Source of the DNA: a virus | Taxonomy: Duplodnaviria; Caudoviricetes | Strand: one strand, 5' to 3' | Virus record (IMG/VR): IMGVR_UViG_3300038393_002467 | Span: 1-59,719 of that record | Length of the DNA stretch: 59,719 nucleotides | Shown here: one piece after another, positions 388 to 59,463 of the stretch | Position numbering within the stretch: the stretch's first letter is position 1 | How the letters are laid out: each line of letters opens with the position of its first letter | Position numbers and translations under genes: made by a program | Notes under the pieces: generated by a model | Database searches by the model: none | Seen by the model: only the letters and a program-made list of their open reading frames with translations | What the model was told of the DNA's origin: nothing

Positions 388-965
388 CAGTTCACCGCCC
401 GGTACGGGTGCACCCAGATCTCCGAGAGCGCCGCCGTCGCACACAGCACCTCGCCCCACGGGGCGATGACCTCGACGTGCGCCAGCCGGACCCAGCCGTG
501 CGGCCCCTGCACCGGCTCCTCCTCGTGCCACGTGCTGACCCGCCTGCCCTTGTGGAAGAGCGCCACCTGCTGGCGCGGCTGTGCTTTGGTGACCACCGGC
601 AGTGGTGTCACACCGTGTGACCCGGGCCGGGGCAGCAGCCGCTGCTTGAGCACCGACACCCAGTACCGGCAGTGCCAGCACTCGGTCACCGGCAGGCGGC
701 CGTCGTCCGGGACCCCGAGCATGACGTCGATGTCGTGCAGTGCGTGCTCGCTGACGTGCGAGGAGCCGTCGGCGATGTTAGCGTCCTGCCACTGCAGCAC
801 CGTGTCGAGTGCGGCCTTCATCCCCCGGTTCCGGTCGGCGGTGGTGCCGAGGAAGACGACCGGCGGGAAGTCCGGCGGCGGGTCGACGAACCGGCCGACC
901 CACTGGTCGGCGTCGGCGACGATGCGGAACGCGATGCCGCCCAGACGGGTCGTGACGGTGCTCAT
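387..965 (-). CDS. Hypothetical protein
   Basis: MSTVTTRLGGIAFRIV...; GC-rich third positions, coupled to the next gene; contains a palindrome copy. Confidence 0.6.
   Translation of the reverse strand: MSTVTTRLGGIAFRIVADADQWVGRFVDPPPDFPPVVFLGTTADRNRGMKAALDTVLQWQDANIADGSSHVSEHALHDIDVMLGVPDDGRLPVTECWHCRYWVSVLKQRLLPRPGSHGVTPLPVVTKAQPRQQVALFHKGRRVSTWHEEEPVQGPHGWVRLAHVEVIAPWGEVLCATAALSEIWVHPYRAVN
605..623. repeat. 19-bp palindrome copy (intragenic, 1 mismatch)
   Basis: GTGTCACACCGTGTGACCC. Confidence 0.85.
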
Positions 966-1101
966 GCCAGACCACCTCCGGGCTGCGAGCGGCGGGCCAT
1001 CTCGTCGATCCACGACGCCTGCCGCTGCCGCGCCTTGCGCACGGCGCGGGCCAGTGCCCGGTCGTGACGGGCCGCGGCCCGGCGGTAGGAGGTGCGGCGG
1101 C

Positions 1102-1305
1102 TCATCGGGTGCCTCCCATCCCGTAGAGGTCGTCGGTCTGTGCGGCGGCGAGGGTGACCCCCAGCCGCCGGGTCGGCACCGGCGTGGTGCGCCGGGTGTT
1201 CGTCGTCACGGCGAACAGGCGGGCACGGATGATCCGCTCGTCGAGGTTGCGCCGACGGGGTGCCCGCTCCGCGGCGATGACCTCAGCATTCACGACCTGT
1301 GACAT
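1102..1305 (-). CDS. Small hypothetical protein
   Basis: 67-aa ORF with upstream GAGGAAG RBS and GAGAGGCAC motif. Confidence 0.55.
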   Translation of the reverse strand: MSQVVNAEVIAAERAPRRRNLDERIIRARLFAVTTNTRRTTPVPTRRLGVTLAAAQTDDLYGMGGTR

Positions 1306-1366
1306 GGTCGTCCACTTCCTCTCGTTGTGCCTCTCATGGTGGGCCGAGCGGCCCGCACCGCCGCCG

Positions 1367-1385
1367 GTGTCACACGCTGTGACAC
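1367..1385. repeat. 19-bp palindrome copy
   Basis: GTGTCACACGCTGTGACAC. Confidence 0.9.
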
Positions 1386-1407
1386 CGGGGCGATACGCAC
1401 GGCTCGG

Positions 1408-1968
1408 TCAGCGGTCGCTGCTGCGCCCGATGGCGTAGTCGACGTCCTTGCACCACGAGCAGCGGCGGCCGTCATGCCGCTGCCCCCGGTAGTGCCGCAG
1501 CAGGTTGTCCTCCTCGTCGGACTCCGAGCGCAGGTGCAGGTCGAGGTCCTCCGCTGTGACGACGTGCCGGTCGAGACTCTCGACCGCGTCGAACAGGCGG
1601 GTGGCCGCGATGCTGCGCAGCGCCGTCCGCCGGTTCGGTCCGGTGACGGTCGACGTTCGGTGACCGAGCGCCGGGCCCTCGTCCTCGTAGCCGAGGTCGG
1701 CCATGCTCGCGTGCCGCTTGGCGGGCTGGCAGTCGACCGACTCGATGGTCCACCCGGTCGAGTCGTTCGCCATCTTGGTGAAGATGGCCGAGTGGTCCCG
1801 CGGGTCGACCCGGTGCTCGACGCACAGGAACAGGCGCAGGATGGCGCGCTGCCCCTGCTCGTTGTGCATCGGCACGACGTACCAGTACGCCGACCGGTTC
1901 GGGATGCCGCAGCCGCACTGCTGGGTGGCGACCGGCCGCTCCGGCTGGCCCCACATCCCGGCGGTCAT
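1408..1968 (-). CDS. Hypothetical Cys/His-containing protein
   Basis: MTAGMWGQPERP...CGCG...CSWC; ATG overlaps the stop of 1965..2162. Confidence 0.55.
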   Translation of the reverse strand: MTAGMWGQPERPVATQQCGCGIPNRSAYWYVVPMHNEQGQRAILRLFLCVEHRVDPRDHSAIFTKMANDSTGWTIESVDCQPAKRHASMADLGYEDEGPALGHRTSTVTGPNRRTALRSIAATRLFDAVESLDRHVVTAEDLDLHLRSESDEEDNLLRHYRGQRHDGRRCSWCKDVDYAIGRSSDR

Positions 1969-2162
1969 CGGGCGGTGCCGTTCAGGATGGCGGCCCGCTG
2001 GCGCAGCAGCGCCGCCTCGGTGATGTCGTACTGGTAGGCCGCCTCGTGCATCGCGCGGCCCGTGCTCATCCCGACCGCGATGCAGTCCGCCTCGACGCGT
2101 GCGGCTGCGGCTGCGGCCTGCTGCTCGATCTCTCGGTCGCTGAGAATGACGATGGTGCTCAT
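1965..2162 (-). CDS. Small hypothetical protein
   Basis: MSTIVILSDREIEQQ..., preceded by GAGG RBS and tandem GAGAGGCA motifs. Confidence 0.55.
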   Translation of the reverse strand: MSTIVILSDREIEQQAAAAAARVEADCIAVGMSTGRAMHEAAYQYDITEAALLRQRAAILNGTAR

Positions 2163-2224
2163 CGTCCTCGCCTGCCTCTCTGGTGTGTGCCTCTCTGGTG
2201 GACCGGACGGTCCATGGAGTGGCC

Positions 2225-2243
2225 GTGTCACACGGGGTGACAC
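2225..2243. repeat. 19-bp palindrome copy in extended hairpin 2217-2251
   Basis: GTGTCACACGGGGTGACAC. Confidence 0.9.
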
Positions 2244-2278
2244 GGCCACTCGGATGCACGGTCCGGTGCGGTGGTGAC

Positions 2279-2911: not shown

Positions 2912-2930
2912 GTGTCACACCGTGTGACAC
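2912..2930. repeat. 19-bp palindrome copy (perfect)
   Basis: GTGTCACACCGTGTGACAC. Confidence 0.95.
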
Positions 2931-2948: not shown

Positions 2949-2967
2949 GTGTCACACCGTGTGACAC
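2949..2967. repeat. 19-bp palindrome copy (perfect), followed by a 12-bp-spacer variant at 2971-2998
   Basis: GTGTCACACCGTGTGACAC. Confidence 0.95.
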
Positions 2968-3122
2968 GTGGTGTCACACACCTGTGCGTGTGTGACACGT
3001 GCCCGTGGGCACCGGAGCCCGCCGCTCCCGTCCGGGAGGAACCGGGAGCGGCGGACACCGCTGCGCGCGGGCAGGGTGACGCGGCCGGGCCCACGACAGG
3101 GGACCGGCCGCGTGGTGACCGG

Positions 3123-3230: not shown

Positions 3231-3322
3231 GGCAGTGCCTCTCAGTCGGACGGATGGGACGGGCGTCCCCAGCACTGCCCCGACGCGGGTGCGCCGGGGC
3301 AGTGCGAGCGGGCCCGTACCGG

Positions 3323-4126
3323 TCACGCGGCAGGCGTCGCCTTCCGAGCGCCGGACAGGCGCTCCCGGACCTTGTCCGCGATGCGGTCGACGGCCGCCCA
3401 CTGCTCGGGCGTCACGTCCGACGCGTCGAGCGAGGCGAGGACGTCGGACAGGCGCTCGAAGGCGGACACGAGGTCCTTGCCCGTGTAGACGCGCGCGGTC
3501 GTCTCTCCGGCCGCGTCGGTCACAGGCTTGCCGGAGGGCATCTCCCCGCCCGAGGCGGCGAGCGCGACGAGGTCGACCCGCTCGCCACGGCCGGACGCCT
3601 GCCGGTTGACGGCCGTGAGAGCGGCCGTGTCGCTCACCATGGTGTGCCGCTTGCCGTCGTTGACGGCCTGCCGGGACGCCTCGACGACGTCGACGGCCTT
3701 GCCGAACTTGCTCCAGCGGGTGCGGACGGCCGAGCCGATCTTGCTCGTCCGGGTCTGCTCGGTCTCCGGGGTGCCCTCCACCGCGTACCCGAGCGCCGAC
3801 AGGGAGACCTTCGGGTCGACCTTGCGGGCGGCGCGGATGATCCGCAGCGCGAACGCGGACTGCGCGTCCACAGCGGCGCGCCCCATCTTGGAGAACGAAG
3901 CGGCGACAGCGGACGCGTGCGCCAGTGCGGAGGTGTCCGCGTACAGCGGTCCCGCCTCGGTGCGGACGACGTCCAAAAGGGTGTCCTTGGTCGCTTTGCC
4001 GATAGCCGTCACGGCGGCCGTGCGTGCCTTCGGGTCGGACTCGGGAATGCCGAAGCCAGCGAGCATCCGGGCGGCGTCGGACTCGACGGCCGCGAGGTCC
4101 TTGGTCTGGGTCTGGGTCGTGCTCAT
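3323..4126 (-). CDS. Ala-rich helical hypothetical protein, first gene of the leftward operon
   Basis: MSTTQTQTKDLAAVES..., 267 aa, RBS GAGAGGCAC, directly downstream of the promoter at 4209-4237. Confidence 0.75.
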   Translation of the reverse strand: MSTTQTQTKDLAAVESDAARMLAGFGIPESDPKARTAAVTAIGKATKDTLLDVVRTEAGPLYADTSALAHASAVAASFSKMGRAAVDAQSAFALRIIRAARKVDPKVSLSALGYAVEGTPETEQTRTSKIGSAVRTRWSKFGKAVDVVEASRQAVNDGKRHTMVSDTAALTAVNRQASGRGERVDLVALAASGGEMPSGKPVTDAAGETTARVYTGKDLVSAFERLSDVLASLDASDVTPEQWAAVDRIADKVRERLSGARKATPAA

Positions 4127-4208: not shown

Positions 4209-4237
4209 ATTGTACCGCCCGGGGCAGGGGATGTCCA
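4209..4237 (-). promoter_or_regulatory. SigA/HrdB-type promoter TGGACA-N17-TACAAT
   Basis: Near-consensus -35/-10 with 17-bp spacer on the minus strand, upstream of 3323..4126. Confidence 0.75.
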
Positions 4238-4252: not shown

Positions 4253-4271
4253 GTGTCACACGGTGTGCCCC
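4253..4271. repeat. 19-bp palindrome copy upstream of promoter (2 mismatches)
   Basis: GTGTCACACGGTGTGCCCC. Confidence 0.8.
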
Positions 4272-4938
4272 CCACCCCCGCCGACCCGCCCGCCCGCCCC
4301 GGACAGGTGACGCTCGACGGCTCTGCAAATGCCCGTGATCCACCCAGATTCCCCGTATACGGCCTATGGGGTGGGGTGGGGGGTGGGGGTCCCCCCGAGA
4401 ATGGCGCGTAAACGGGGCACAGACCGCCCGGCAGGCTGATTCTCGTGCTCTCGGTACCCGCTGCTGCTGCCCACCGGGAGCGGCCCGTATACGTGCGACG
4501 GAGAACGTCCGCTTCGCGCGGGGCGCGAGGGAGGATGACCCGGGCCGGGGGACCTCGTTCGTCACGTTGCAGGGTCCGGGTGGGCGAAGACCCCCCGGAG
4601 AGGCACCAACGGGGGGTCTTCTGTGCCCGGTGCGGGAGTCGCACCCTCGACCGGGCTGGTGGGGGCCCCGCTGTGTCCACGGCGTCGGCTTGAACCCCTC
4701 CGCGCGAGGCCCCCGCAGCGAGGATACGACGCAGCCCCGACGGCGGGGGACCGTCGGGGCTGCAGAGAGTCGCTCATCAGGGGGAGGATGAGGCGCACCC
4801 CACCGTACGGGTCCCACCATGTCCCGCGCGAGTCCCAGAAATCGCCACAAAGTCGGACATCTTAGACATCGCCACCGGCGGGAGACCCCGCCAACACGCT
4901 GATAGCAGCACGTTCCGGGCCTTTGGGGGCCGGAAATG

Positions 4939-5814: not shown

Positions 5815-6017
5815 TGCTGCAGATCAGCGAGAACGTCTGGGTCGACCCGCGGGCCGTCGACCTCATCGAGTGGATACCGGCCGCGCCCGAGGGCAGCAAG
5901 AAGGGCATGCCCCGGGTCACCGTCAACGGGACCAGCCGACGCGCCGAGTTCTACGCCGGGAAGCGCGGCAAGCAGATGCGCCGCCTCGTCGTCGACCTGT
6001 ACAGGCCGCAGCAATGA
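5814..6017 (+). CDS. Small hypothetical protein
   Basis: MLQISENVWVDPRAVDLIEW..., TGATG overlap. Confidence 0.6.
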   Translation: MLQISENVWVDPRAVDLIEWIPAAPEGSKKGMPRVTVNGTSRRAEFYAGKRGKQMRRLVVDLYRPQQ

Positions 6018-6208
6018 CCGGCCCGAAGCCCGGCGTCCTCATCGGCGACGCCGCCCTGACCAAGGTCATCAACGCCCGGGTCACCGAGAAGGACCACGCC
6101 CTCATCGAGGAAGCCAGCCGCAAGGCCGGGTTCCCCTCCATCGGCAAGTGGCTGCGGGTCCTCGCCATGCGCGAGGCCGAGCGGCTCACCGGAGGAGACC
6201 CGTCATGA
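6014..6208 (+). CDS. Ribbon-helix-helix (MobC/CopG-like) DNA-binding protein
   Basis: KVINARVTEKDHALIEEASRKAGFPSIGKWLRVLA: alternating beta strand followed by two helices. Confidence 0.65.
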   Translation: MTGPKPGVLIGDAALTKVINARVTEKDHALIEEASRKAGFPSIGKWLRVLAMREAERLTGGDPS

Positions 6209-7642: not shown

Positions 7643-8178
7643 CCGTGGCACACGCTGTGACACCGATCCCCGACGACGCCGGGATCGAGAGGGCCAACGA
7701 GCACCTGACCGCCAAGGACCGGGCCACCCGCACGCAGGCCGCCGTCGCCATGAAGATCAAGGGTGCGCCGTACAGCAAGATCGCCAAGACGCTCGGCTAC
7801 GTCTCGGCGACGCAGGCCCGGCAGGCCGTCGAGCGGGCGCTGGCCGAGAGCGTCGGGCCCGGCGACCGGCAGCAGCAGCGGTTCTTGGAGAGCCGACGGC
7901 TGGAGCGGCTGCTGCAGTCGGTCTTCAAGAAGGCCACCGACGACGAGGACCCGGAGCATCTGGCGTACGTCCGGGCGGCGCTGGCGATCATCGACCGTCA
8001 CGCCCGGCTCGTCGGCGCGGACGCCCCGCAGGAGATGGTCGTCTACAACCCGAGCCAGCGGGAGATGGACGAGTGGATCGCCACCATGGTCAAGCAGGTG
8101 CACGGCGAGATGCCCGAGGAGTACGACGTCATCGAGGGTGTCGCCATCAACGACGATCCGGTGGGTGACGGCGACTGA
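7639..8178 (+). CDS. Putative terminase small subunit (N-terminal HTH)
   Basis: AVAMKIKGAPYSKIAKTLGY HTH, then RLERL...AIIDRHARLVGADAP as in actinophage TerS-like proteins; GTGA overlap. Confidence 0.6.
   Translation: MTVAHAVTPIPDDAGIERANEHLTAKDRATRTQAAVAMKIKGAPYSKIAKTLGYVSATQARQAVERALAESVGPGDRQQQRFLESRRLERLLQSVFKKATDDEDPEHLAYVRAALAIIDRHARLVGADAPQEMVVYNPSQREMDEWIATMVKQVHGEMPEEYDVIEGVAINDDPVGDGD
7645..7663. repeat. 19-bp palindrome copy in the 5' end of the terS-like gene
   Basis: GTGGCACACGCTGTGACAC. Confidence 0.8.
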
Positions 8179-19857: not shown

Positions 19858-19876
19858 GTGTCACACGGTGTGACAC
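19858..19876. repeat. 19-bp palindrome copy (perfect), upstream of the major capsid gene
   Basis: GTGTCACACGGTGTGACAC. Confidence 0.95.
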
Positions 19877-21674: not shown

Positions 21675-21688
21675 TCGGAAGGCCCGGC

Positions 21689-21707
21689 GTGTCACACGGT
21701 GTGACAC
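21689..21707. repeat. 19-bp palindrome copy (perfect) in hairpin 21681-21715 after the capsid gene
   Basis: GGCCCGGC-GTGTCACACGGTGTGACAC-GCCGGGCC. Confidence 0.95.
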
Positions 21708-21750
21708 GCCGGGCCGCCCACCATCCAGACACGAGAGAAACGAGCCAGCA

Positions 21751-33848: not shown

Positions 33849-33867
33849 GTGTCACACCGTGTGACAC
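33849..33867. repeat. 19-bp palindrome copy (perfect), upstream of the amidase
   Basis: GTGTCACACCGTGTGACAC. Confidence 0.95.
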
Positions 33868-40063: not shown

Positions 40064-40082
40064 GTGTCACACCGTGTGACAC
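40064..40082. repeat. 19-bp palindrome copy (perfect), upstream of the peptidase
   Basis: GTGTCACACCGTGTGACAC. Confidence 0.95.
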
Positions 40083-41661: not shown

Positions 41662-42100
41662 CGGGCACCTCCGGCCTGTGCATCGGGTCCTCGCACCGGC
41701 ACAGCGAGATCTCGTCGCGACCCTCGTCCCACGCGGTGCCGTCGCAGTTGCCGTGCTTACCCTGCTGGCACTCCGGGCAGACTGGCTTGGCCGTGGTCAC
41801 AGCGGCGATAGCCTCGGCGACCTCCGGGTCGAAGCCGCTGCGGATCAGCAGGTCCGCGGCCGTGATCTCGCCGCGCCGCAGCGCGAGGAAGTCGTTGGCG
41901 TAGCGGACCATCGGGCCCTCCTGCGGTGTCACACCGTGTGACACGTCCCAGTCCTCGCCGCCCTCGCGCAGCGCCCCGGTGATCTGGGCGAAGTTGAGCG
42001 TCAGCGCGTCGTCGTCCAGACCCAGCCGGGTCATCGTGCGGGTCTGGTCCATCAGCCGCTTCAGTGCCGCGATCTGTGCCGCCTCCCTGCTGTCGGTCAC
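41648..42100 (-). CDS. Hypothetical protein, possibly a two-gene fusion with an internal start at 41911
   Basis: GGAGG RBS at GTG 42100; internal palindrome, then GGAGG and ATG; C-terminal CPEC...HGNC. Confidence 0.6.
   Translation of the reverse strand: MTDSREAAQIAALKRLMDQTRTMTRLGLDDDALTLNFAQITGALREGGEDWDVSHGVTPQEGPMVRYANDFLALRRGEITAADLLIRSGFDPEVAEAIAAVTTAKPVCPECQQGKHGNCDGTAWDEGRDEISLCRCEDPMHRPEVPDAPV
41926..41944. repeat. 19-bp palindrome copy (perfect, intragenic)
   Basis: GTGTCACACCGTGTGACAC. Confidence 0.95.
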
Positions 42101-44827: not shown

Positions 44828-44846
44828 GTGTCACACCGTGTGACAC
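44828..44846. repeat. 19-bp palindrome copy (perfect), upstream of the Sak-like gene
   Basis: GTGTCACACCGTGTGACAC. Confidence 0.95.
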
Positions 44847-48406: not shown

Positions 48407-49425
48407 GGGCGCGTTCCTCCCTCTCCGACGCCGGACCAGTCAGGGGTGGCGGTGAGCGACCTGAGCGCCCATGCCTCTCCCCCGTCTGCCGACTGCTCCA
48501 TGTCCAGCCGCCGCTTCTGCGCATCCAGAGCGGCTTGGTGTTTCTTCCGGTCCTCGATCAGGAACCTGAGCCAGAGGCTCGGGCTCGGATCGCGCTTCTG
48601 CTCGTGACACCGGGTGAGGTAACCGACCAGATGTGCCTGCGGGTCGTAGTCGGTTGCCACGTTTGCGGCCGTCCTCCACGCGGCCTGCCATGACTGAACT
48701 CTCGACGCCTCGTTAACGCCGAACCACGTCCTCAGCAGGTGCACCTCGGTCCACGGAATCTGGTCCGTGGCACACGGTGTGACACCGGCGGCGGCTGCGG
48801 TGAGAGCATCATCGGTCGTGACAGCGGTTCCGTCAAGCCGCGCAGAATCGCCCCCATCTCTTACTTCTAGAGCAGCAGCATCATCTTTAGATGATGCCTC
48901 CCCTACTACGTAGGGGAGGGTGTCGGAACCTGAAAACCCGGTTCCCGTGGGAACCTGAAAAGACGGTTCCGACACACCTTCGACAGAGTCGGAACCTGAA
49001 AAGCCGGTCCCCATGGGAGCCTGAATATCCGGTTCCCACGCAGGGTGGGAGCCTGAAAAGACGGTTCTCACGTACAGCCGGTTGCCGTGCCGGACGACGA
49101 ATCCGACGCTGCGGAGTTCGCCCAGCGTGGCCCGCAGCACGTCACGCCCACCGAGTCCGTGCGCGACGAGATCGGCCGCCGTCACGGCCTGACCCGCGGG
49201 CCAGTTGGACAGCAGCCACGCCGCCAGCCCCAGCGCGCGGAGGCTCACCCTGCGGTCGCGAGCCAGTTCCCCCAAGACATCCACCCGATGCTTCCTCTCA
49301 CTCGTCGGCGCGAGTCTGTAGTCTGGCAGCAGAGCCGAATCCAGCCCGCTGCTCCGAGAAGCCCCGGTCGCGTCCCTCGTTAGCGACCGGGGCTTCTTGT
49401 ATCCAAATCCAGACATGCCGTACAC
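48403..49425 (-). CDS. Replication initiator (winged-HTH, lambda O-like architecture; alternative start 49416)
   Basis: DRRVSLRALGLAAWLLS...GRDVLRATLGELRSVGFV; internal DNA iterons; upstream of the primase-helicase. Confidence 0.7.
   Translation of the reverse strand: MYGMSGFGYKKPRSLTRDATGASRSSGLDSALLPDYRLAPTSERKHRVDVLGELARDRRVSLRALGLAAWLLSNWPAGQAVTAADLVAHGLGGRDVLRATLGELRSVGFVVRHGNRLYVRTVFSGSHPAWEPDIQAPMGTGFSGSDSVEGVSEPSFQVPTGTGFSGSDTLPYVVGEASSKDDAAALEVRDGGDSARLDGTAVTTDDALTAAAAGVTPCATDQIPWTEVHLLRTWFGVNEASRVQSWQAAWRTAANVATDYDPQAHLVGYLTRCHEQKRDPSPSLWLRFLIEDRKKHQAALDAQKRRLDMEQSADGGEAWALRSLTATPDWSGVGEGGTRP
48767..48785. repeat. 19-bp palindrome copy inside rep, near the origin
   Basis: GTGGCACACGGTGTGACAC. 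Confidence 0.9.
48855..49068. other. Putative replication origin: five 21-bp iterons, AT-richer tract and two hairpins
   Basis: GGA[A/G]CCTGAA...CGGT[T/C]C at 48925, 48950, 48991, 49016, 49048; inverted repeats at 48878-48897 and 48897-48919. Confidence 0.75.
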
Positions 49426-49483: not shown

Positions 49484-49502
49484 GTGTCACACGCTGTGAC
49501 AC
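49484..49502. repeat. 19-bp palindrome copy upstream of rep
   Basis: GTGTCACACGCTGTGACAC. Confidence 0.9.
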
Positions 49503-52920: not shown

Positions 52921-52940
52921 GGTGCTGTCCTTTCCTCTCG

Positions 52941-52959
52941 GTGTCACCCGGTGTGACAC
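52941..52959. repeat. 19-bp palindrome copy
   Basis: GTGTCACCCGGTGTGACAC. Confidence 0.9.
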
Positions 52960-53235: not shown

Positions 53236-53298
53236 CGGGTCACCGCGCTGAGGTTCTTGACGTGCATACTGATGTCCTTCCTTTCGGTGGGAGAAACT

Positions 53299-53337
53299 GC
53301 TGCGGCCGGACCCCTTAGGCGGGGGCCCGGCCGCAGC
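53299..53337. terminator. GC-rich hairpin after 53350..53631
   Basis: GCTGCGGCCGG / CCGGCCGCAGC arms, followed by TTTC on the minus strand. Confidence 0.5.
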
Positions 53338-53349
53338 GGCGTGGGTGCG

Positions 53350-53631: not shown

Positions 53632-53649
53632 GGCTCTCTTTCGGTTCGG

Positions 53650-53668
53650 GTGTCACACGGTGTGACAC
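53650..53668. repeat. 19-bp palindrome copy (perfect), after ssb
   Basis: GTGTCACACGGTGTGACAC. Confidence 0.95.
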
Positions 53669-53675
53669 CGGGGGA

Positions 53676-54308
53676 TCAGAACGGCGGCTCGCCCCACGGG
53701 CTGTCGGCCCCACCCCAAGGGCCCTGTCCCGGCGGAGGCTGCTGCCCCTGTTGACCCCAGCCCGGCTGTGCCGGGGGCTGACCGGCAGGCTGCTGAGCCT
53801 GCGCGGGAGCCTGTGCTGGGGCCTGCTGCTGCGCCTGCTGCTGCTGGCCCTGCGGCGGCGTGGCCCACGGGTCGTCGCCGCCCTGCGTGCCGTAGCCCGT
53901 CCCCCACGTGGGGGCCTGCTGCTGACCGCCGCCGGACTGGCCGGTCCGTTCGGTGCGCTGGGCCCGGGCGGTGGCGTTGCGCAGCGACGGCGCGACGTTG
54001 TTCGCGTCGATGCACACCGCGAGCCCCTCGCCGCCCTCGCGGCGCTGGAACGTCTCGGTGTACAGCCGTCCCGTGACGACGACGGCGTCGCCCCGGCGCA
54101 GCGACTCGGTGACGTTCTCCGCCATCTCCCGCCACGCCGTGACGCGGAACCAGATCTGGCGGCCGTCCTCCCACTGCTGGGTCTGCTCGTTCTTCTTGCG
54201 CTCGGTGCAGGCGACCCGGAAGTTGCACACGGCCGCGCCGCTGGGCGTGAACCGCAACTCCGGGTCGGCCCCGAGATTGCCCTCGATGGTGATGGTGGGC
54301 AGAACCAC
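53676..54308 (-). CDS. ssb: Single-stranded DNA-binding protein
   Basis: ITIEGNLGADPELRFTPSGAAV, AWREMAENV, G/Q-rich tail ending EPPF. Confidence 0.95.
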   Translation of the reverse strand: MVLPTITIEGNLGADPELRFTPSGAAVCNFRVACTERKKNEQTQQWEDGRQIWFRVTAWREMAENVTESLRRGDAVVVTGRLYTETFQRREGGEGLAVCIDANNVAPSLRNATARAQRTERTGQSGGGQQQAPTWGTGYGTQGGDDPWATPPQGQQQQAQQQAPAQAPAQAQQPAGQPPAQPGWGQQGQQPPPGQGPWGGADSPWGEPPF

Positions 54309-54577
54309 TACGCCTTCTCCTGTCCGGACTTGGTCGCCATCAGGTAGATGTCGGCCTTCGTCCCGTTGGTGTTGCGGCTCACCGCGCTGTAGGCCCACTC
54401 GTCGGTGGGGCGCATGGCGCTCATGTCCCCCCGACGGATGGCGGCGGCGAGCCCCCGGTTGACCTGCTTCAGGGCGGGCACGAGGACCCACTCGTCAGGC
54501 TTCTGGTGCAGGCGACGCTTGATCGCCTCCCAGTCATATCGGCCCACTACAGGTGGGCCGCCGATGTGCTTGGGCAT
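54308..54577 (-). CDS. Hypothetical protein
   Basis: GRYDWEAI...KPDEWVLV; GGAG RBS. Confidence 0.65.
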   Translation of the reverse strand: MPKHIGGPPVVGRYDWEAIKRRLHQKPDEWVLVPALKQVNRGLAAAIRRGDMSAMRPTDEWAYSAVSRNTNGTKADIYLMATKSGQEKA

Positions 54578-54668
54578 CGGTCTCCTCTCGCCTTCCGGAG
54601 GTGCGCTGGATGTGCACCCAAGGCTCAGTCTATGTATTGGTTGGTGGACCGGTGCTGCGACTGTCCGG

Positions 54669-54932
54669 TCAGGTCGGTCTCCTCTCTCGCTCTCGGTGGT
54701 CGAGGAACGCCTGCACGTCCTCGGCGTGCTCCTCCCGGTAGGCGATGGCGTCGGCCACGGCGGCCTCGTACGCCTCGTCGGAGCCGGTCGGCAGCCCGCG
54801 GATGATGGCCCAGTGGTGGGCCCGGATGTAGACCCGGTGCCGGTCGATGTCGAGGGTGTCCGAGGCGGACTCGCTGACCACCCACGCCACCCCGGCCCGG
54901 CGCAGGTTGTCCGGCAGGTGGGTCAGGTTCAC
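54669..54932 (-). CDS. Hypothetical protein
   Basis: GTG start right after the upstream stop. Confidence 0.55.
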   Translation of the reverse strand: MNLTHLPDNLRRAGVAWVVSESASDTLDIDRHRVYIRAHHWAIIRGLPTGSDEAYEAAVADAIAYREEHAEDVQAFLDHRERERRPT

Positions 54933-54933
54933 G

Positions 54934-56328
54934 TCACTTCTCGCTTTCTTCCGAGAGCAGGTCGCGCAGGGCGCGCCGCTCCTCACGCAGCCGTTCGATC
55001 TCCGCCTCGGCGGTGCTGAGGCGCTCGGTCAGGTCGGTGATCTCGGCGCGCATCTGCGGGATGGCGTGCCCCTCGATGATCGTCACGGCCAGTGCGACCC
55101 GCTCTGAGTGCGGCAGCGACAGGACGTCGTGGCTCACCTTGACGGCGGTGTCCTCCGGCACGCCGCTGGCGGTCAGCCGGGCGTACAGGGTCAGGCCGTG
55201 CCGCTCCGCGGTCACCTCGCCGCCGGTGTGCACGACGCCCGGGTCGGGCTCCGGCCGGTGCTCGCCGCGCCGGTACGTCACGGTGTCGGTGACCCGGGTG
55301 TTCGGTTTGCCGTTGGCGGTGCCGTGGATCTTGGCGTGACTGGACACCGAGCGGACCCGGTTGCTCATGAACCCGCAGTACCGGCAGCCGTAGGCGATGA
55401 GGTTGTTGTCGAAGATCACCTCGTCCACCATCTCCGACTCGTACGCCTGACCGGTGCGGTTTGCGATGTACGCCCGCCGGGTCCGCACCGACAACTTGCC
55501 AAGGTGCAGCATCTCCTCGATGGTCTGCGGCCCGACATTGAGGACCACCTGTACCCCCTCCTGCTGGGCCTGCTCGGCCTGCTCGGTGATCCGCTCCTGC
55601 CCGAGGGAGATGACGTCGGACCGGTACACCAGCCGCAGCGGCCTGCCCCCGCCGGGCCGCGGTTGCTTGTCGGCGCGCAGCCTGCCGATCTTGATGTAGC
55701 GGTAGATGGATTTGCGGTCGACGTCGAGGTACTCGGCCGCCTCGTCGGCGGTCATCGTGGCGAGCGGCTCGGGTGCCGGGTCCGGCGTCATCTCGGGCTC
55801 CGACTCGGCTTTGACCTCCGGCTCCGGCTCCGGTGTGGGTTCCGGTGCGGGCTCCCGCTGCGGCTCGGGTTCTGTGCGCTCGGCGAGGACGGCGTCGGCC
55901 TCCCGCAGCGCGTCGGCAAGTCGCTGCCCGGCTTCGGCGAGCCGGGCCTCCGCCTCGTCGCGCAGCCACTGACTGAACGACGCGCCGAGATTGCGCTGCA
56001 GCAGCACCCGCATCCGGACCATGTCCGGGTCCATGTGGGTGACGTCGGTGGTGCCCTCCAGCAGGCTGCGCACCTCGTCGACCCCGACGTAGCGCAGCAC
56101 CTTCTTCAGCGTCGACTTGGCGCGGTTGCTGTTGAGGTTCGTTGTCGGCACGTTGACCGACACCTCGGTGTGCGGCGGCGGCGCGGTGAGCATGATGACG
56201 TTGCGGGCGGCGTTGTGCCAGCGACCTTTCCAGCCGAGGGCAATGGCGGTGGCGACGACCTCTTTGCCACCGGAGGAGAACGCCTTGAGGTCCTTCTCCT
56301 CGAAGTACGGTCCGTTGATGCGCGGCAT
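54934..56328 (-). CDS. Multidomain DNA-binding protein (HicA-like N-terminus, Xis/MerR-type HTH, C2H2 finger, coiled coil)
   Basis: MTADEAAEYLDVDRKSIYRYIKIGRL HTH; YGCRYCGF...SHAKIH; C-terminal heptads. Confidence 0.75.
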   Translation of the reverse strand: MPRINGPYFEEKDLKAFSSGGKEVVATAIALGWKGRWHNAARNVIMLTAPPPHTEVSVNVPTTNLNSNRAKSTLKKVLRYVGVDEVRSLLEGTTDVTHMDPDMVRMRVLLQRNLGASFSQWLRDEAEARLAEAGQRLADALREADAVLAERTEPEPQREPAPEPTPEPEPEVKAESEPEMTPDPAPEPLATMTADEAAEYLDVDRKSIYRYIKIGRLRADKQPRPGGGRPLRLVYRSDVISLGQERITEQAEQAQQEGVQVVLNVGPQTIEEMLHLGKLSVRTRRAYIANRTGQAYESEMVDEVIFDNNLIAYGCRYCGFMSNRVRSVSSHAKIHGTANGKPNTRVTDTVTYRRGEHRPEPDPGVVHTGGEVTAERHGLTLYARLTASGVPEDTAVKVSHDVLSLPHSERVALAVTIIEGHAIPQMRAEITDLTERLSTAEAEIERLREERRALRDLLSEESEK

Positions 56329-56360
56329 GGATCAGACTCCTGTCATGGGTGTAGGGGGCC

Positions 56361-56379
56361 GTGTCACAGGGTGTGACAC
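56361..56379. repeat. 19-bp palindrome copy in hairpin 56354-56386
   Basis: GGGGGCC-GTGTCACAGGGTGTGACAC-GGCCCCC. Confidence 0.9.
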
Positions 56380-56398
56380 GGCCCCCCTCGGTGATGTG

Positions 56399-57520
56399 TC
56401 AGGCCGACAGCATCGGGTTGACGGCGGGCTCCTCGATGCGGGCGGCGGTGCAGCGGACGTTGCTGTAGGAGAAGTGGTCCCAGACCCCCCGGTCGAGCAA
56501 GTCCTCGGCGGTGATGCGGCCGGTCGCCTCCACCTCCATCGTCATGATGACTCGCCGCTTCCCCTGCCGGGGCGCGAGCCCCATGCTGTCGAGGATCGGG
56601 TCGAACTCCGTGCACCACGAGCGGTGCGTGCCCTCGGCCACCATCCGCCGGTGCATGGCGTCACGGATGCGGTCCATCTGCCACTGCAGCCGGTCGGCCC
56701 GGTCCTCCGGGCTCTCCGTCGCCGGGTTGATGATCGGCACGCTGATCCCGAGGTGGTTCAGCGCGATGGTCGTCGAGGCGATCTCGTCCCCGCTGACGAC
56801 GGCGTGGATGTTGGAGTAGCGGGCGATCTTGCCCCGCTTGCCCGACAGCCGGGAGTTGTTGACCGTCGGCAGCACGATGACGTTCTCGTGCTTGGTGCCG
56901 TAGACGACGGCGATGATGGCCTCGACGCGGTGGTGGTCGTAGGGGTTGCCGTCGACGAGCACCTTGCCCTTGGCGTCGAAGCCGTCGAAGTGGCCGAACT
57001 TGTCCCCGTTGACGAGGACGAACGCGCCGACGGTGGGCACGATGGCCCGCACCTCCAGCCACCGCTCGGCTGCCGCCTTTCGCGCGGCCAGCGGCTCGGT
57101 CACCTGCTTGATGACCTCCTCCGGCCAGTCGGCGTAGAGCCCCCGGGCGTAGTCGGACGGGGTGTTCCGGGCGTTCGCGTACCCGAGGTGGAGCCGGTCC
57201 CGGCTCACGCAGTACGTGCACATCGAGAACGTCGCCTCCAGCGGGGCCCCGCTCTCGTCCTCGATGATGACCCGGTCGTGGACGTACCGCTGCTCGATGA
57301 AGTCGGTCAGCGAGACGTCCTCGTCGGGCGTCCACCACGTGGAGTAGGCGCATGCGGCGCACGTCCCCTTGAAGAGCAGGTCGAGGGTCCTGCCCATGTA
57401 CGTGATCCGCTGCCAGCGGCGCTCGACGCGCGGCAGGGCGCTGCCGATGCTGGCGAAGTTGTCGTAGTGCACCGGCTCGGCGGGGAACTGCAGGCCGTTG
57501 CGGTTGATGGTCTCGGTCAT
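56399..57520 (-). CDS. Hypothetical protein
   Basis: 373-aa ORF with CAAC/CTYC; bracketed by two palindrome hairpins. Confidence 0.7.
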   Translation of the reverse strand: MTETINRNGLQFPAEPVHYDNFASIGSALPRVERRWQRITYMGRTLDLLFKGTCAACAYSTWWTPDEDVSLTDFIEQRYVHDRVIIEDESGAPLEATFSMCTYCVSRDRLHLGYANARNTPSDYARGLYADWPEEVIKQVTEPLAARKAAAERWLEVRAIVPTVGAFVLVNGDKFGHFDGFDAKGKVLVDGNPYDHHRVEAIIAVVYGTKHENVIVLPTVNNSRLSGKRGKIARYSNIHAVVSGDEIASTTIALNHLGISVPIINPATESPEDRADRLQWQMDRIRDAMHRRMVAEGTHRSWCTEFDPILDSMGLAPRQGKRRVIMTMEVEATGRITAEDLLDRGVWDHFSYSNVRCTAARIEEPAVNPMLSA

Positions 57521-57586
57521 GGTGGTGGTGCCTTCCTGTGATTTCGGTGGGATTGCAGAGTGGCGCGGATGCGCCGGGGAGGGCGG

Positions 57587-57605
57587 GTGTCACAGGGTGT
57601 GACAC
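57587..57605. repeat. 19-bp palindrome copy in hairpin 57582-57610
   Basis: GGCGG-GTGTCACAGGGTGTGACAC-CCGCC. Confidence 0.9.
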
Positions 57606-57627
57606 CCGCCCATGGTGTGCCGGTCGG

Positions 57628-58125
57628 TCAGCCGCGGTAGCCCTTGGACTTGGCGAAGTCGACGAGCGACTCGACCTTGGCGGCGAGACGACGCAGCAGC
57701 GTCGAGTCGTCCTCGACCTCCGGCTCCGGCTCGGGCTCGGGCTCCGGCTCGACGAGCCCGGCGTCGGACAGGATGCCGCGGACCGTCGTCTCGTCGGTGT
57801 ACGCCGACGCCGCCGCGACGATGGCCGTGACCTGCGCGTCGGTCAGGTACGGCACCGCCTCCGGGGTGTCGGACGGGCGGTCCTGCGCCTCGGCCGGGGC
57901 GTCGGGGTTCGCGGACGAGGCCGCGGCGACCTTGGCGGCGACCGCGGCGAGGACCGCGCCGTCGAGGTAGCCGGAGCCGACCAACTGGATGACGACCGCC
58001 GGGTCCTCGCCGGCGTCGATGCGGCTGGCCGCACCCTCGATGCGGGTGCGGTAGCCGTCGAGGCTGTAGCGGCTGTAGCCCTGCTCGACGAGGGCGTCGG
58101 TGATGACCTGCGTGGTGTTCGACAT
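57628..58125 (-). CDS. Hypothetical Ala-rich protein
   Basis: MSNTTQVITDAL..., AAGGGA RBS, EPEPEP linker. Confidence 0.7.
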   Translation of the reverse strand: MSNTTQVITDALVEQGYSRYSLDGYRTRIEGAASRIDAGEDPAVVIQLVGSGYLDGAVLAAVAAKVAAASSANPDAPAEAQDRPSDTPEAVPYLTDAQVTAIVAAASAYTDETTVRGILSDAGLVEPEPEPEPEPEVEDDSTLLRRLAAKVESLVDFAKSKGYRG

Positions 58126-58278
58126 GTGGTTGTTCCCTTCGGTGGGTTTCCTTGTGCCGCAACGGGATTCGCTGCGGGTCGCGCTATCGGTGGCGCGGCC
58201 ATGGCGTCGGGCAGGGGGAGGCACGACCCCTTGGGTGCCCGACGCCATGACCTCTCCCACCGAGGGCAAGAGAAGTGC

Positions 58279-58297
58279 GTGTCACACGGTGTGACAC
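58279..58297. repeat. 19-bp palindrome copy (perfect)
   Basis: GTGTCACACGGTGTGACAC. Confidence 0.95.
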
Positions 58298-58304
58298 GGG
58301 TCGG

Positions 58305-58664
58305 TCAGAGCAGCAGTGCTGCCCTGCGGCTGCGGACGACCTCGGTCCACAGCGCGTTGAGGACCTCGAACTGGCCCAGCCCGGGCATGTTCGAGTCCAT
58401 CGAACAGGTGAAGCCGAGGTCGCCGAACATCGGCCCGTCGCAGTGGTCGAGCAGTGCCTGCGCGAAGCCGGTCGTCACCTGCTCGCTTGTCACCGGGACG
58501 ACCTGACCGAGCACGCACCGGTCCGGCGTCTCCATTCGGATGCGGCCGGTGACCCGGTCCACCCAGCCCGGGTAGTGCTGGTCGAGCCACGCCTCACCGG
58601 CGCGGACCGCCTCGACGAGGACCGGGTCGGTCAGCGGCGGGAACGCCCGCTTGCGCAGGTTCAT
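58305..58664 (-). CDS. Hypothetical protein (WLDxHYPGW family), paralog 1
   Basis: AGEAWLDQHYPGW...CVLGQ. Confidence 0.7.
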   Translation of the reverse strand: MNLRKRAFPPLTDPVLVEAVRAGEAWLDQHYPGWVDRVTGRIRMETPDRCVLGQVVPVTSEQVTTGFAQALLDHCDGPMFGDLGFTCSMDSNMPGLGQFEVLNALWTEVVRSRRAALLL

Positions 58665-59011
58665 CCCGCCTCCCGACGTTCGGTGATGAGCCGCTTCCAC
58701 GCCTCGTTGAGCGGCTCGTAGTCGTACGCGGCGTTGAAGCCGAGCAGCCGGGTCCGTGCGACGAGCCCCTCCTCGGTCTGGATCTCAGCCTTGAGCCAGT
58801 CCGCGTGCGGCGACTCCGGCCCACGCAGCCAGTCCCATGCGAAGTGGCCGTCGCGCTCGGCCTTCGGGACGGCGTAGGCCAGCACGTCCCGGTCGGCGCT
58901 CGCCATGTTGAGCACGTCGAGGTTGACCTCGTCGTCCCAGCCCGGGTAGTGCTCGTCGAGCCAGCGTGCGCCGTCGTAGACCCGGTCCTGCAGGATCTCC
59001 TCCGGGGTCAT
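58661..59011 (-). CDS. Hypothetical protein (WLDxHYPGW family), paralog 2
   Basis: DGARWLDEHYPGW...LNM; AAGGAGG RBS. Confidence 0.7.
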   Translation of the reverse strand: MTPEEILQDRVYDGARWLDEHYPGWDDEVNLDVLNMASADRDVLAYAVPKAERDGHFAWDWLRGPESPHADWLKAEIQTEEGLVARTRLLGFNAAYDYEPLNEAWKRLITERREAG

Positions 59012-59071
59012 CGGTCCTCCTTCATCGGGTCGAGCCCGGTCTGTGCGACCGTGCGGTCGTAGATGGGTGTG

Positions 59072-59377
59072 TCACTCGGCGGCGACGGTGGCGGCTTCGG
59101 CTGCGACTGCTTTCGCGTCGCGTTCTGCCGCGTCGTGCTGCTGCGTCTGCGGGTCGGCAAGGTTCCTCACCTCCTCGGGCATGTGGTCCATCGGCAGGAT
59201 GCCCTCCATCCCGAAGGCGAGGGCGGCGAGGACGGCGTCCTCGTGCTCGGCGAACTGGCCGATGACGGTGAAGCACATCGTCTGGCCGTTCTTCCACGGA
59301 ACGGTGAGCAGCGCCTCCCCGGTCTCGTTGTCGGTGACGACGGCGTAGCCCTCACGCGACGTGATGCTGAAATCCAT
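59072..59377 (-). CDS. Hypothetical protein, first gene after the strong promoter
   Basis: MDFSITSREGYAVV..., AAAGG RBS. Confidence 0.65.
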   Translation of the reverse strand: MDFSITSREGYAVVTDNETGEALLTVPWKNGQTMCFTVIGQFAEHEDAVLAALAFGMEGILPMDHMPEEVRNLADPQTQQHDAAERDAKAVAAEAATVAAE

Positions 59378-59444
59378 GAACGTGCCTTTCATGAGGACGG
59401 CCGGTGAGCGGAAGGAGGACCGCTCACCGGCCGTGGTTCGGGAT

Positions 59445-59463
59445 GTGTCACACGGTGTGACAC
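59445..59463. repeat. 19-bp palindrome copy (perfect), downstream of the strong promoter
   Basis: GTGTCACACGGTGTGACAC. Confidence 0.95.

Follow-up and report, generated by a model that had tools for sequence, protein, structure and literature searches.

The palindrome array of an uncultured soil phage

The window, meaning here the whole stretch of DNA analysed (59,719 nucleotides), is the complete, circularly assembled genome of an uncultured soil phage (59.6 kb, 70% GC). A gene call based on its own codon usage yields 93 genes and leaves 10.9% of the genome non-coding. The Arthrobacter phage Tank is a distant relative by homology comparison, and the terminase, portal, capsid, tail, exonuclease, Rad52, HNH, primase-helicase and SSB genes are held in common with relatives at 31-50% identity. 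The phage encodes a bifunctional primase-helicase (zinc ribbon, Toprim and AAA_25 domains), as well as an exonuclease and a Rad52-family annealing protein. A Pfam scan of 76 window ORFs brought up no integrase, CI-like repressor or ParAB, in agreement with the sequence-only reading of this DNA.

That reading had listed 22 copies of a 19-base palindrome, and all 22 are present, 15 with exact arms and 7 with one or two mismatches. The exact pattern GTGTCACA-N3-TGTGACAC matches 15 times (mean 0 and maximum 0 in 100 shuffles). With up to three mismatches allowed, the count rises to 24 matches (shuffle mean 0.25); 22 of them, with 0-2 mismatches, are the copies already listed, and the other two (2959 and 2961) overlap copy 2949. 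Eleven copies are the perfect GTGTCACAC[C/G]GTGTGACAC, as had been claimed, six with CCG and five with CGG at the centre. The copies and one variant are the following (no strand assigned):

605..623: one mismatch; within CDS 387-965(-)
1367..1385: exact arms, centre CGC; 22 nt past a stop codon; an imperfect flank extension makes a long imperfect hairpin (fold -44.6 kcal/mol)
2217..2251: copy 2225-2243 with flanks; one mismatch adjoining the loop; complementary 8-bp flanks, unrelated in sequence, on both sides
2912..2930: perfect; start at 2891 is 20 nt on
2949..2967: perfect; 37 nt from copy 2912
2971..2998: variant with the same 8-bp arms 12 nt apart; alternatively 11-bp arms and a 6-nt loop
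4153..4171: one mismatch (position 16); in a 5' leader, 37 nt downstream of a leftward promoter -10; start at 4126 is 26 nt on
4253..4271: two mismatches; 15 bp upstream of a -35
7645..7663: one mismatch (position 4); 2 nt past a stop codon, at the start of a TerS/HTH-like gene (7657-8178), overlapping its called start
19858..19876: perfect; 1 nt past a stop codon; next come a generic 15-bp hairpin, a promoter-like -10 and the conserved leader of the capsid gene
21681..21715: copy 21689-21707 with 8-bp complementary flanks; perfect; directly past the major capsid gene
33849..33867: perfect; stop codon 7 nt before, start codon 17 nt on
40064..40082: perfect; stop codon 3 nt before, start codon 18 nt on
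41926..41944: perfect; within CDS 41648-42100(-), coding by frame analysis (GC3 0.92), translated VSHGVT
44828..44846: perfect; Rad52-like gene start 22 nt on; a -10-like hexamer, TAGAAT (44880-44885(-)), 33 nt upstream
48767..48785: one mismatch (position 4/16); adjoins an iteron array, within a possible initiator ORF, 48403-49425(-)
49484..49502: exact arms, centre CGC; 1 nt past a stop codon
52941..52959: one mismatch adjoining the loop; touches a stop codon; start codon 20 nt on
53650..53668: perfect; SSB gene stop 7 nt before, next start 18 nt on
56354..56386: copy 56361-56379 with 7-bp complementary flanks; centre GGG; HTH_17 gene start 32 nt on
57581..57611: copy 57587-57605 with 6-bp complementary flanks; centre GGG
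58279..58297: perfect; the only copy with a T-rich tail (terminator-like by scan)
59445..59463: perfect; 35 nt downstream of the -10 of promoter 59528-59499(-)

Placement between genes

By the gene call used here, 19 of the 22 copies are wholly non-coding (P = 6e-16 for at least 19 of 22 at 10.9% non-coding). The exceptions are copy 7645, which overlaps a called start, and copies 605 and 41926, which lie within CDSs; the earlier split of 18 intergenic and 4 coding copies is recovered if ORF 48403-49425, which contains copy 48767, is real. A called stop codon lies 0-45 nt before 14 copies (within 22 nt for 12), and the next start codon follows 13 copies at 17-66 nt, a placement in favour of a transcribed junction element. 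Mean spacing is about 2.7 kb, with the highest density of copies among small orphan early genes. Copies do stand on either side of the major capsid gene (20046-21674), whose homologues are Gordonia phage capsid genes and the Tank head gene. Two further gene labels are weakly checked: the amidase said to follow one copy (33885-34859) has an Amidase_2 match below cut-off (E 0.0033), and the peptidase said to follow another (40101-40805) is without a family match.

The motif occupies 14 of the 33 same-strand gaps of at least 20 nt. Generic hairpins of 15-22 bp fill several of the motif-free gaps, such as the one behind the major tail gene, and L137, the nearest relative, shows a plain GC hairpin at the place of copy 21689. 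Gaps with the motif and gaps with generic hairpins thus appear to be the same niche, which favours reading the palindrome as a hairpin. Since a T-rich tail follows one copy in 22, the palindromes are not canonical intrinsic terminators, and this weakens the hairpin reading to some extent.

Symmetry, promoters and a possible operator

Is the palindrome read as a hairpin or as duplex DNA? Its dyad symmetry continues through the centre, positions 9 and 11 being complementary in 17 of the 22 copies. The 8-base half-sites are almost absent as single sites (the sole extra pair is the variant at 2971/2991), and half-site centres are 11 bp, one helical turn, apart. All seven imperfect copies retain one perfect half: their changes are one-sided and stem-breaking, none is compensated or wobble-compatible, and in four of them the change is an identical T-to-G at position 4/16. 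The loops, compared on the sense strand (CCG 9, CGG 8, GCG 2, CCC 2, CGC 1), reveal no strand bias among the 22 copies. Each of these observations is what would be expected of a double-stranded DNA operator, with a dimeric phage protein on a 9-1-9 palindrome at about 22 sites. This is the main rival to the hairpin and a possible explanation, if a rather less probable one. The hairpin reading is weakened by the lack of strand bias, by the symmetry at positions 9/11, which could not pair across a 1-nt loop, by the uncompensated stem-breaking changes with their shared position 4/16, and by a stem of only 50% GC in a 70% GC genome.

The surroundings of some copies also bear on the operator. Two sigma-70-like promoters are relevant:

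4209..4237, minus strand: TGGACA-17-TACAAT, bracketed by copies 4153 and 4253
59499..59528, minus strand: TTGACA-18-TAGGAT, with TG upstream

Copies 4153 and 4253, which have an identical 18-mer in common and lie 100 bp apart, bracket the best promoter, and a looped pair of sites would enclose this main leftward promoter. Copy 4253 precedes the promoter, and the leftward transcript probably does not include it, which again weakens the hairpin reading. Three copies are found 33-37 nt downstream of -10 elements and therefore inside 5' leaders, a position that suits a transcribed hairpin and equally an operator that works at a step beyond initiation, serving as roadblock, insulator or DNA organiser. 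Such a role has been proposed for Cluster O repeats, and the L5 stoperators are protein-bound sites that act after initiation. Furthermore, an unrelated phage contig of 55% GC (G001) carries these arms seven times, around a T-W-A centre and in several cases beside -10-like hexamers, but this match could be coincidence. In IMG/VR the 16-base pattern has single matches in 20 stretches on 16 contigs, estimated to be about the number expected by chance.

The binder would be a small protein that escaped detection or the first of two candidate readers:

54934..56328, minus strand: 464-aa protein with a Xis/MerR-type HTH_17 domain; candidate reader
6014..6208, plus strand: 64-aa protein with a weak NikA-like (ribbon-helix-helix) match below cut-off; second, weaker candidate reader

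The HTH_17 domain is the only clear DNA-binding domain found, and its gene lies directly downstream of a copy. Against this assignment, the search returned no homologues of the 464-aa protein, and neither Tank nor MellowYellow has an HTH_17-like protein at the equivalent position, despite having the same kind of array.

Flanks and a possible hairpin form

Four of the 22 copies (2225, 21689, 56361 and 57587) are lengthened by 6-8 bp of flank that is complementary across the palindrome and unrelated between copies (null 8e-4 per site, binomial P ~3e-9); at copy 1367 the extension is imperfect. This covariation, at four or five copies, would have no role in duplex binding and counts against the operator. 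Spacing is also variable. Besides the 12-nt variant in the window, L137 carries two copies of its own palindrome with spacers of 2 and 3 nt, and the repeats of phage MellowYellow mix spacers of 1 and 2 nt. A hairpin would tolerate such variable spacers, which a rigid dimer bound to duplex DNA would accommodate poorly; they therefore favour the hairpin.

Copy 21689 looks like the 19-mer inserted in the loop of a GC hairpin, which is plain in L137. This appearance would fit a selfish or neutral element that uses template switching or gene conversion to reach gene gaps and the loops of hairpins, without benefit to the phage. The copies within CDSs of both the window phage and SilentRX, and the single dominant family in each lineage, point the same way. 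We nevertheless consider such spread improbable: the arms are nearly invariant and the GGGTCGG stem described below is kept in three separate records (Tank, SilentRX and BruhMoment), which implies purifying selection, and the scanned proteins include neither a transposase nor a RAYT-like protein.

Equivalent repeats in Arthrobacter phages

Arthrobacter phages carry junction repeats of their own, newly found here in Tank, SilentRX, BruhMoment and MellowYellow. The repeat is GGGTCGG-N4-CCGACCC in Tank/Wilde, SilentRX and BruhMoment and GCCGGT-N1-2-ACCGGC in MellowYellow, and the phages have 29 (Tank), 36 (SilentRX, up to one mismatch), 26 (BruhMoment) and 30 (MellowYellow) copies. The layout is that of the window phage: stop codon, repeat, ribosome site, start. 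A word search of the text covered of Klyczek et al. (2017; PMC5513430) returned no mention of these repeats, and a literature text search gave no match to their sequences as strings. They resemble the window palindrome in lineage, placement, copy number and the dominance of one family per genome. They differ in sequence, in their GC-richer stems and in their sense-biased loops or flanks, the window element being fully symmetric.

Among 91 GGGTCGG-type copies the sense-strand loop is G..A in 42 and T..C in 4, with the bias present on both arms, and the MellowYellow flanks are sense-oriented (AACC...AGTAA). Such bias in the equivalents argues against an operator and, being suggestive of function, against selfish spread. 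It is evidence about the relatives, and would carry over to the window phage by placement only.

The bias also bears on a role in replication, where the palindrome would be a single-stranded DNA hairpin used, for instance, by the T7 gp4-like primase-helicase to prime synthesis or to load the helicase. The phage encodes this bifunctional enzyme, the mean copy spacing would suit it, and five iteron-like repeats (48918-49070) lie between copies 48767 and 49484, so that the earlier claim of two copies flanking the replication origin is plausible. In addition, the first five bases of the window motif and of the Tank motif appear to coincide with two of the three preferred recognition pentamers of T7 primase. 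However, this resemblance was noticed only after the fact, and a primase could not reach a site enclosed in a stem. Nor does a replication role account for the close association with stop codons and ribosome sites, and the loop bias in the relatives tracks the direction of transcription on both arms. A replication role thus seems very unlikely, the least probable of the explanations considered.

Repeats at gene boundaries could instead serve as recombination joints at which the exonuclease and Rad52-type system of the phage swaps or loses cassettes. The density of the array among small orphan early genes and one junction repeat present in Wilde and missing from Tank are consistent with this, as is the shuffling documented in T4-type phages, according to the part of Arbiol et al. 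(2010; PMC2839356) covered. However, none of six indel breakpoints between the right arms of Tank and Wilde falls at a repeat (the nearest is 34 bp off), contrary to the suggestion that gene gain and loss would break at the motif. Fragmentary contigs of near-identical strains from four other soil/rhizosphere runs give no clear rearrangement at copies, 19 bases is short for efficient homologous exchange, and the authors of the Cluster O study, in the section covered, saw few or no such events (PMC4351075). Recombination joints are accordingly an improbable explanation. The sequence-only reading had proposed either the site of a dimeric protein or a hairpin delimiting swappable cassettes; the hairpin gains support, the swapping finds none where breakpoints were compared, and the dimer site stays as the main rival.

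Comparison with known systems

The RNase III hairpins of T7 early genes are conserved between cistrons of long transcripts, and cleavage leaves a protective 3' stem. The window palindrome is likewise intercistronic, but its 8-bp stem is probably too short for RNase III, and the T7 sites are much longer, imperfect hairpins. The conserved inverted repeat (CIR) of Streptomyces phage phiC31, with many highly conserved intergenic copies, is also comparable as a multi-copy intergenic element. It is a repressor operator, however, in a temperate phage with a known repressor.

Elements of this kind are already known from Cluster O dyad repeats and T4-type PeSL cassettes, and to call the array an undescribed system was an overstatement. 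As far as the available text of Cresawn et al. (2015; PMC4351075) goes, Cluster O mycobacteriophages carry a 17-bp dyad repeat, TGTTCGG-N3-CCGAACA, which shares with the window palindrome the short inverted form, 3-bp centre, invariant arms, tens of copies (many intergenic), greater density in the leftward early arm, lack of clear orientation and undescribed function; those phages, too, are without integrase or ParAB. The sequence differs, the arms are 7 bp against 8-9 bp, the phages are unrelated, about a third of copies lie within genes (3-4 of 22 in the window) and flank-extended hairpins, present in the window phage, are not reported in that text.

The PeSL (promoter-early stem-loop) combines a strong sigma-70 promoter with a G/C-tract stem-loop and drives gene shuffling. 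It has the same order of stop codon, stem-loop, Shine-Dalgarno and start codon at junctions of small early genes, and its stem-loop terminated transcription in a reporter (Arbiol et al., 2010; PMC2839356, in the part covered). Differently to the PeSL, promoter-like -10 elements are near only 3 of 22 window copies, the core is one fixed sequence, and the Tank-Wilde comparison reveals no shuffling at repeats. Stoperators of Cluster A mycobacteriophages and Cluster CA Rhodococcus phages (PMC13313380, in the passages covered) are similarly 20-30 short dispersed sites, mostly intergenic or at gene ends in transcribed DNA, with sequences that vary by phage group. However, they are 13-14 bp, asymmetric, oriented with transcription and serve a lysogenic repressor. 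The window motif is symmetric and without orientation, and no repressor or integrase was found, so the earlier conclusion that it is neither stoperator nor SAS stands.

A proposed transcribed junction hairpin

The explanation that we tentatively prefer, at somewhat short of an even chance, is a transcribed junction hairpin whose conserved core is recognised by a putative phage factor and which serves as an attenuator, a 3' protector or a processing signal. The hairpin component is supported by the complementary unrelated flanks, the long-spacer variant and the sense-biased equivalents in relatives. The palindrome would be transcribed within the long leftward and rightward messages, where the RNA is predicted to fold into an 8-bp stem with a 3-nt loop, extended by unrelated flanks to 14-20 bp at five sites. 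Lying directly past the upstream stop codon and before the next ribosome-binding site, it would most likely attenuate read-through, protect the 3' end of the upstream message or mark a processing site. To account for the invariant core a sequence-specific reader is needed, putatively a phage-specific factor recognising the stem. Copy number, placement, flank covariation and the strand-biased equivalents in relatives are observed, whereas the hairpin in vivo, its effect on the transcript and the existence of the reader are inferred. The palindrome would then be the standard punctuation between the genes of this phage, and since related Arthrobacter phages have versions of their own in the same places, punctuation of this type recurs among phages.

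The palindrome array and its genomic setting

All 22 coordinates that the sequence-only reading gave for the 19-bp palindrome (two 8-bp arms around a 3-bp centre) are correct: 15 copies have exact arms and seven carry one or two mismatches, against 0 to 0.25 copies in shuffled sequence. Eleven copies form the perfect 9-1-9 palindrome, as was also claimed. The centres are CSG, CGC or GGG, and the junction repeat family of this phage can be described as the GTGTCACA type. Half-sites never occur alone, with the exception of one pair (2971/2991) separated by a 12-nt spacer. Only 10.9% of the genome is non-coding, yet 19 of the 22 copies lie outside gene calls (P = 6e-16); copies 41926 and 605 are within genes.

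The window, 59,719 bases long, is an entire IMG/VR virus record with a GC content of about 70%. Bases 1-127 are identical to 59593-59719, a "direct terminal repeat" that is probably the overlap from a circular assembly, and one leftward gene crosses the join of the ends. Our own codon-usage gene call over the whole window gives 93 genes, which fall into two arms:

4951 to 40805, + strand, rightward arm: small genes, then large terminase, portal, head, tail and lysis genes
4126 leftward across the record ends to 40897, - strand, leftward arm: orphan early genes and a replication/recombination block

Copies are spread over both arms and are most closely packed over the initial 3.7 kb of the leftward operon. 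Pfam and PHROGs assign identities to the large terminase, the portal, an SGNH/GDSL hydrolase, a collagen-repeat tail protein, SSB, a primase-helicase (zinc ribbon, Toprim and AAA domains), a Rad52-family protein, a Cas4-like exonuclease and a 464-aa protein with an HTH_17 domain. The gene at 7657-8178 has no Pfam family and is homologous to gp12 of the cultured Arthrobacter phage Tank (45% identity); annotations of its homologues range over small terminase, HTH DNA-binding protein and, in RefSeq Tank only, RNase E. A tRNA scan of the window found none, and Rfam returned no match at gathering score over the whole window and chance-level matches only at E up to 5 over 52900-59500. The sequencing runs listed as containing the window sequence are five soil or rhizosphere DNA runs, with no RNA run among them. 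Five iteron-like repeats (consensus near GGAACCTGAAAAGNCGGTTCC) are found at 48918-49070 within ORF 48403-49425 (- strand). This ORF, directly upstream of the primase-helicase, occupies the position at which relatives have an annotated RepA-like or HTH initiator; the repeats probably represent an origin embedded in the initiator gene.

Oriented by local transcription, 14 copies begin 0-45 nt past a stop codon (12 of these within 22 nt), and 13 copies end 17-66 nt ahead of the start codon that follows, separated from it by a GAGAGG-type ribosome site. The promoter scan identified two strong candidates:

4237-4209, leftward strand, strong sigma-70-like promoter
59528-59499, leftward strand, strong sigma-70-like promoter

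At both of these, and at a TAGAAT hexamer upstream of copy 44828, the start of a copy follows the -10 element at 33-37 nt downstream, which in these three cases places the copy within the leader. An identical 18-mer, with the same half altered, is common to copies 4153 and 4253; these are 100 bp apart and bracket the promoter at 4237-4209, copy 4253 lying upstream of it.

Comparison with known elements

The sequence-only reading had separated the motif from stoperators, rightly so, since the Cluster A/CA site is an asymmetric, oriented 13-14-bp sequence, whereas the motif is a palindrome without orientation bias. Stoperators also go with a cognate immunity repressor and a temperate lifestyle. 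Neither a repressor nor an integrase nor ParAB was found among the 76 ORFs scanned, many of which are without any family. The motif does resemble the Cluster O repeat of mycobacteriophages (TGTTCGG-N3-CCGAACA; PMC4351075), which is likewise a short inverted repeat whose arms are invariant and whose 3-bp centre varies, present in tens of genome-wide copies, many of them intergenic and unoriented to transcription. It differs in sequence, and the nearest isolates of the window phage are Arthrobacter phages; the motif is an analogue of the Cluster O repeat and not a member of that family. In the promoter-early stem-loop (PeSL) cassettes of T4-type phages (PMC2839356) a strong sigma-70-type promoter is physically joined to the stem-loop; here promoter-like elements are near only three of the 22 copies, 33-37 nt upstream and non-overlapping. 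The array itself is confirmed, but it is not an undescribed kind of system, since the Cluster O repeats and the PeSL cassettes are of this kind. Published accounts of short palindromes dispersed over the gene junctions of phages go back to at least 2015 (PMC4351075) and assign them no function.

Could the motif belong to the host? The exact 19-mer has five single matches in the 185,579 species genomes scanned, and with one mismatch allowed 11 of 401 sampled Actinomycetes genomes match, with at most two sites per genome. Because such matches are single or rare, without many chromosomal copies, the motif is not a host element, be it REP-like or a host regulon site.

Several other classes were considered and rejected. 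An intrinsic terminator, in which a U-tract follows a GC-rich stem-loop, would apply to copy 58279 only, which has a T-rich tail; the five extended hairpins have none. The motif contains GTGACA, yet no -10 element follows at 16-19 nt in the copies inspected, and a promoter is rejected for that reason. CRP/FNR sites have the consensus TGTGA-N6-TCACA with half-sites facing inward; the window order is TCACA...TGTGA with a 5-bp gap, and that of the related IMG/VR contig L137 is TGTGA-N8/9-TCACA. Integron attC sites combine a tyrosine recombinase with imperfect palindromes whose outer boxes are conserved. The ORF scan yielded no recombinase, and the motif has a conserved core and variable outer parts, the reverse of attC.

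Junction repeats in cultured Arthrobacter phages

By protein similarity, the nearest isolates are Arthrobacter phages (primase-helicase 45-50% identity, exonuclease 31-35%, Rad52 45%, SSB 42-45%, large terminase 49%, portal 39%, capsid 39%). These cultured phages carry lineage-specific junction inverted repeats of their own, in 26-36 copies each:

Junction inverted repeats of cultured Arthrobacter phages (handles in brackets)
Tank (L140/L141): GGGTCGG-N4-CCGACCC, 29 copies
SilentRX (L144): GGGTCGG-N4-CCGACCC, 29 exact copies and 36 at one mismatch or fewer, in 45 kb
BruhMoment (L145): GGGTCGG-N4-CCGACCC, 26 copies in 31 kb
Wilde (L143): GGGTCGG-N4-CCGACCC
MellowYellow (L142): GCCGGT-N1-2-ACCGGC, 30 copies in 45 kb

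Most repeats of Tank, SilentRX, BruhMoment and MellowYellow are intergenic or at gene ends, and context listings place them between stop codon and ribosome site. On the sense strand, the four-base loop of 91 GGGTCGG-type copies reads G..A 42 times versus T..C four times, on both arms, and 21 of the 29 loops in Tank are GNRA. As the copies are non-independent events, the binomial p of this bias (5e-9) sets an upper limit to how strong this evidence is. The MellowYellow repeats have flanks oriented to the sense strand, and their spacers are a mixture of one and two bases. Sense-biased loops and flanks argue that the element of these relatives acts on one strand, most simply as RNA.

No description of the Arthrobacter junction repeats was found in the literature searched. 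A word search of an Arthrobacter phage paper (PMC5513430) returned none of the words "terminator", "inverted", "hairpin" and "palindrome"; neither the window motif nor those of its relatives, taken as full strings, had a match among the papers searched, and the window motif used as a search string gave primer-type matches only.

Do the repeats define swappable gene cassettes, as the sequence-only reading had offered? None of the six right-arm indel breakpoints between Tank and Wilde falls at a repeat, the nearest being 34 bp away. This comparison, which concerns relatives only, speaks against the proposal and is a further difference from the PeSL cassettes, between which recombination leads to genes being gained and lost. 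The repeats do not mark the gene-content changes seen between these two phages, and the Cluster O authors reported likewise (PMC4351075). Short contigs of near-identical strains from four soil or rhizosphere runs showed no clear structural difference at copies among the differences listed. One junction repeat of Wilde is missing from the same junction in Tank, so the repeats come and go singly. A recombination joint is a minor alternative, and so is selfish spread. A replication hairpin is a third: the window phage and Tank both encode a T7 gp4-like primase-helicase, and the first five bases of their motifs are, in a match made post hoc, two of the three preferred T7 primase recognition pentamers.

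Palindromes on other IMG/VR contigs

The closest structural relative is L137, with 64-78% identity in head and proximal tail proteins and 34-47% in distal tail proteins. A capsid scan of IMG/VR gave three relatives, in structural regions only, and a primase-helicase peptide scan of IMG/VR gave no match. The counterpart of window copy 21689 in L137 is a plain GC hairpin. L137 also carries a palindrome of its own, TGTGACTG-N2/3-CAGTCACA, at two places (3543-3560 and 8397-8415), one matching the place of window copy 19858 and the second at the next-but-three gene junction, where the window (24768-24785) has only a small hairpin, CTGACA-CATC-TGTCAG. The L137 palindrome and the window motif share the hexamer duplex GTCACA/TGTGAC with the loop on the opposite side, for which the chance estimate, made after the fact, is roughly 1 in 250. 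In both phages (window 19877-20045, L137:3560-3736) the major capsid gene comes with a separate unit, made up of a 15-bp hairpin, a -10-like hexamer and about 130 nt of leader; conservation extends to the leader sequence and not to that of the hairpin.

The exact 19-mer occurs on no other IMG/VR contig, and a 14-base core pattern gave mostly single matches among the matches listed. A 16-base pattern matched 20 stretches on 16 contigs, more than once only in G001, an unrelated phage contig (seven in the whole record), and in one 83-kb contig of 40% GC (two); the other matches are by our estimate roughly at chance level. In G001 (52 kb, 55% GC) the seven copies have the same 8-bp arms with a T-W-A centre, are mostly intergenic, and in several cases adjoin -10-like hexamers. 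By tblastn and blastp, an endolysin-like segment is the only protein match common to G001 and the window, and no DNA-binding protein common to both could be named. The arm match may be a coincidence among very many phages with such arrays. Alternatively, both phages may have putative readers, proteins recognising the motif, with a similar recognition surface.

Hairpin or duplex

Is the motif read as a hairpin in RNA or as duplex DNA? Copies 2225, 21689, 56361 and 57587 are extended by 6-8 further base pairs, the extension sequences differing between copies; random positions give such an extension at 8e-4 per site, so that at least four in 22 corresponds to P = 3e-9. The extension of copy 1367 is longer and imperfect, and the variant at 2971-2998 is readable as 11-bp arms with a 6-nt loop. 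The motif occupies 14 of the 33 same-strand gaps of at least 20 nt, and several other gaps contain generic hairpins 15-22 bp long. Our best, tentative reading is a transcribed junction hairpin with a putative sequence-specific reader.

Its serious rival is a duplex operator or roadblock, a possibility that we consider less likely and to which several signals point. Positions 9 and 11 are complementary in 17 of the 22 copies, a dyad symmetry extending to bases that a one-base loop would leave unable to pair in a hairpin. The seven imperfect copies all lack compensating or wobble-compatible changes, and four of them carry the same T-to-G change at position 4/16. The loops in the window show no strand bias (sense loops CCG 9 versus CGG 8), and copy 4253, as given above, lies on the upstream side of its promoter.

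Generic hairpins in motif-free gene gaps include those in 22987-23068 (22 bp, directly after the major tail gene), 3231-3322 (15 bp) and 53236-53349 (16 bp). Of two further hairpins separately noted from the sequence, at 4586-4621 and 59400-59440, one carries the ribosome-site word GAGAGGCAC in its loop and the other has a loop that is the complement of a ribosome site on the leftward RNA.

The putative reader and its implications

The search for a reader covered 76 window ORFs with Pfam and 10 with PHROGs, and no reader could be named from it. HTH_17, in the 464-aa protein (54934-56328), is the sole clear DNA-binding domain; an extended copy lies 32 nt upstream of the gene for this protein. 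No homologue of the protein was found, its Atlas model is poor (pTM 0.32) and the matches of the model are leads only, and no family was assigned to the genes in the corresponding position of Tank and MellowYellow. A 64-aa protein (6014-6208) has a sub-threshold NikA-like/ribbon-helix-helix match.

A wider and distinctly doubtful proposal concerns the Tank-like actinophage lineage, the window phage included. Each sub-lineage would use a private punctuation code, made of one junction hairpin and a co-evolving phage-encoded reader, which would define cistron boundaries on the long early and late transcripts. The reader would be an RNA-binding or RNA-cutting orphan early protein, in a logic comparable to mitochondrial tRNA punctuation or Cas6-type hairpin processing.

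What is new is that the lineage of the element includes cultured relatives with equivalent arrays (Tank, Wilde, SilentRX, BruhMoment and MellowYellow), and that the sense-strand loop bias of these relatives points to a role at the RNA level. If a sequence-specific reader exists, the system would be a compact and portable means to insulate or process cistrons in high-GC bacteria. The main value of the finding lies in the cultured relatives: as their Arthrobacter hosts are laboratory hosts, the question of motif function becomes testable at the bench.
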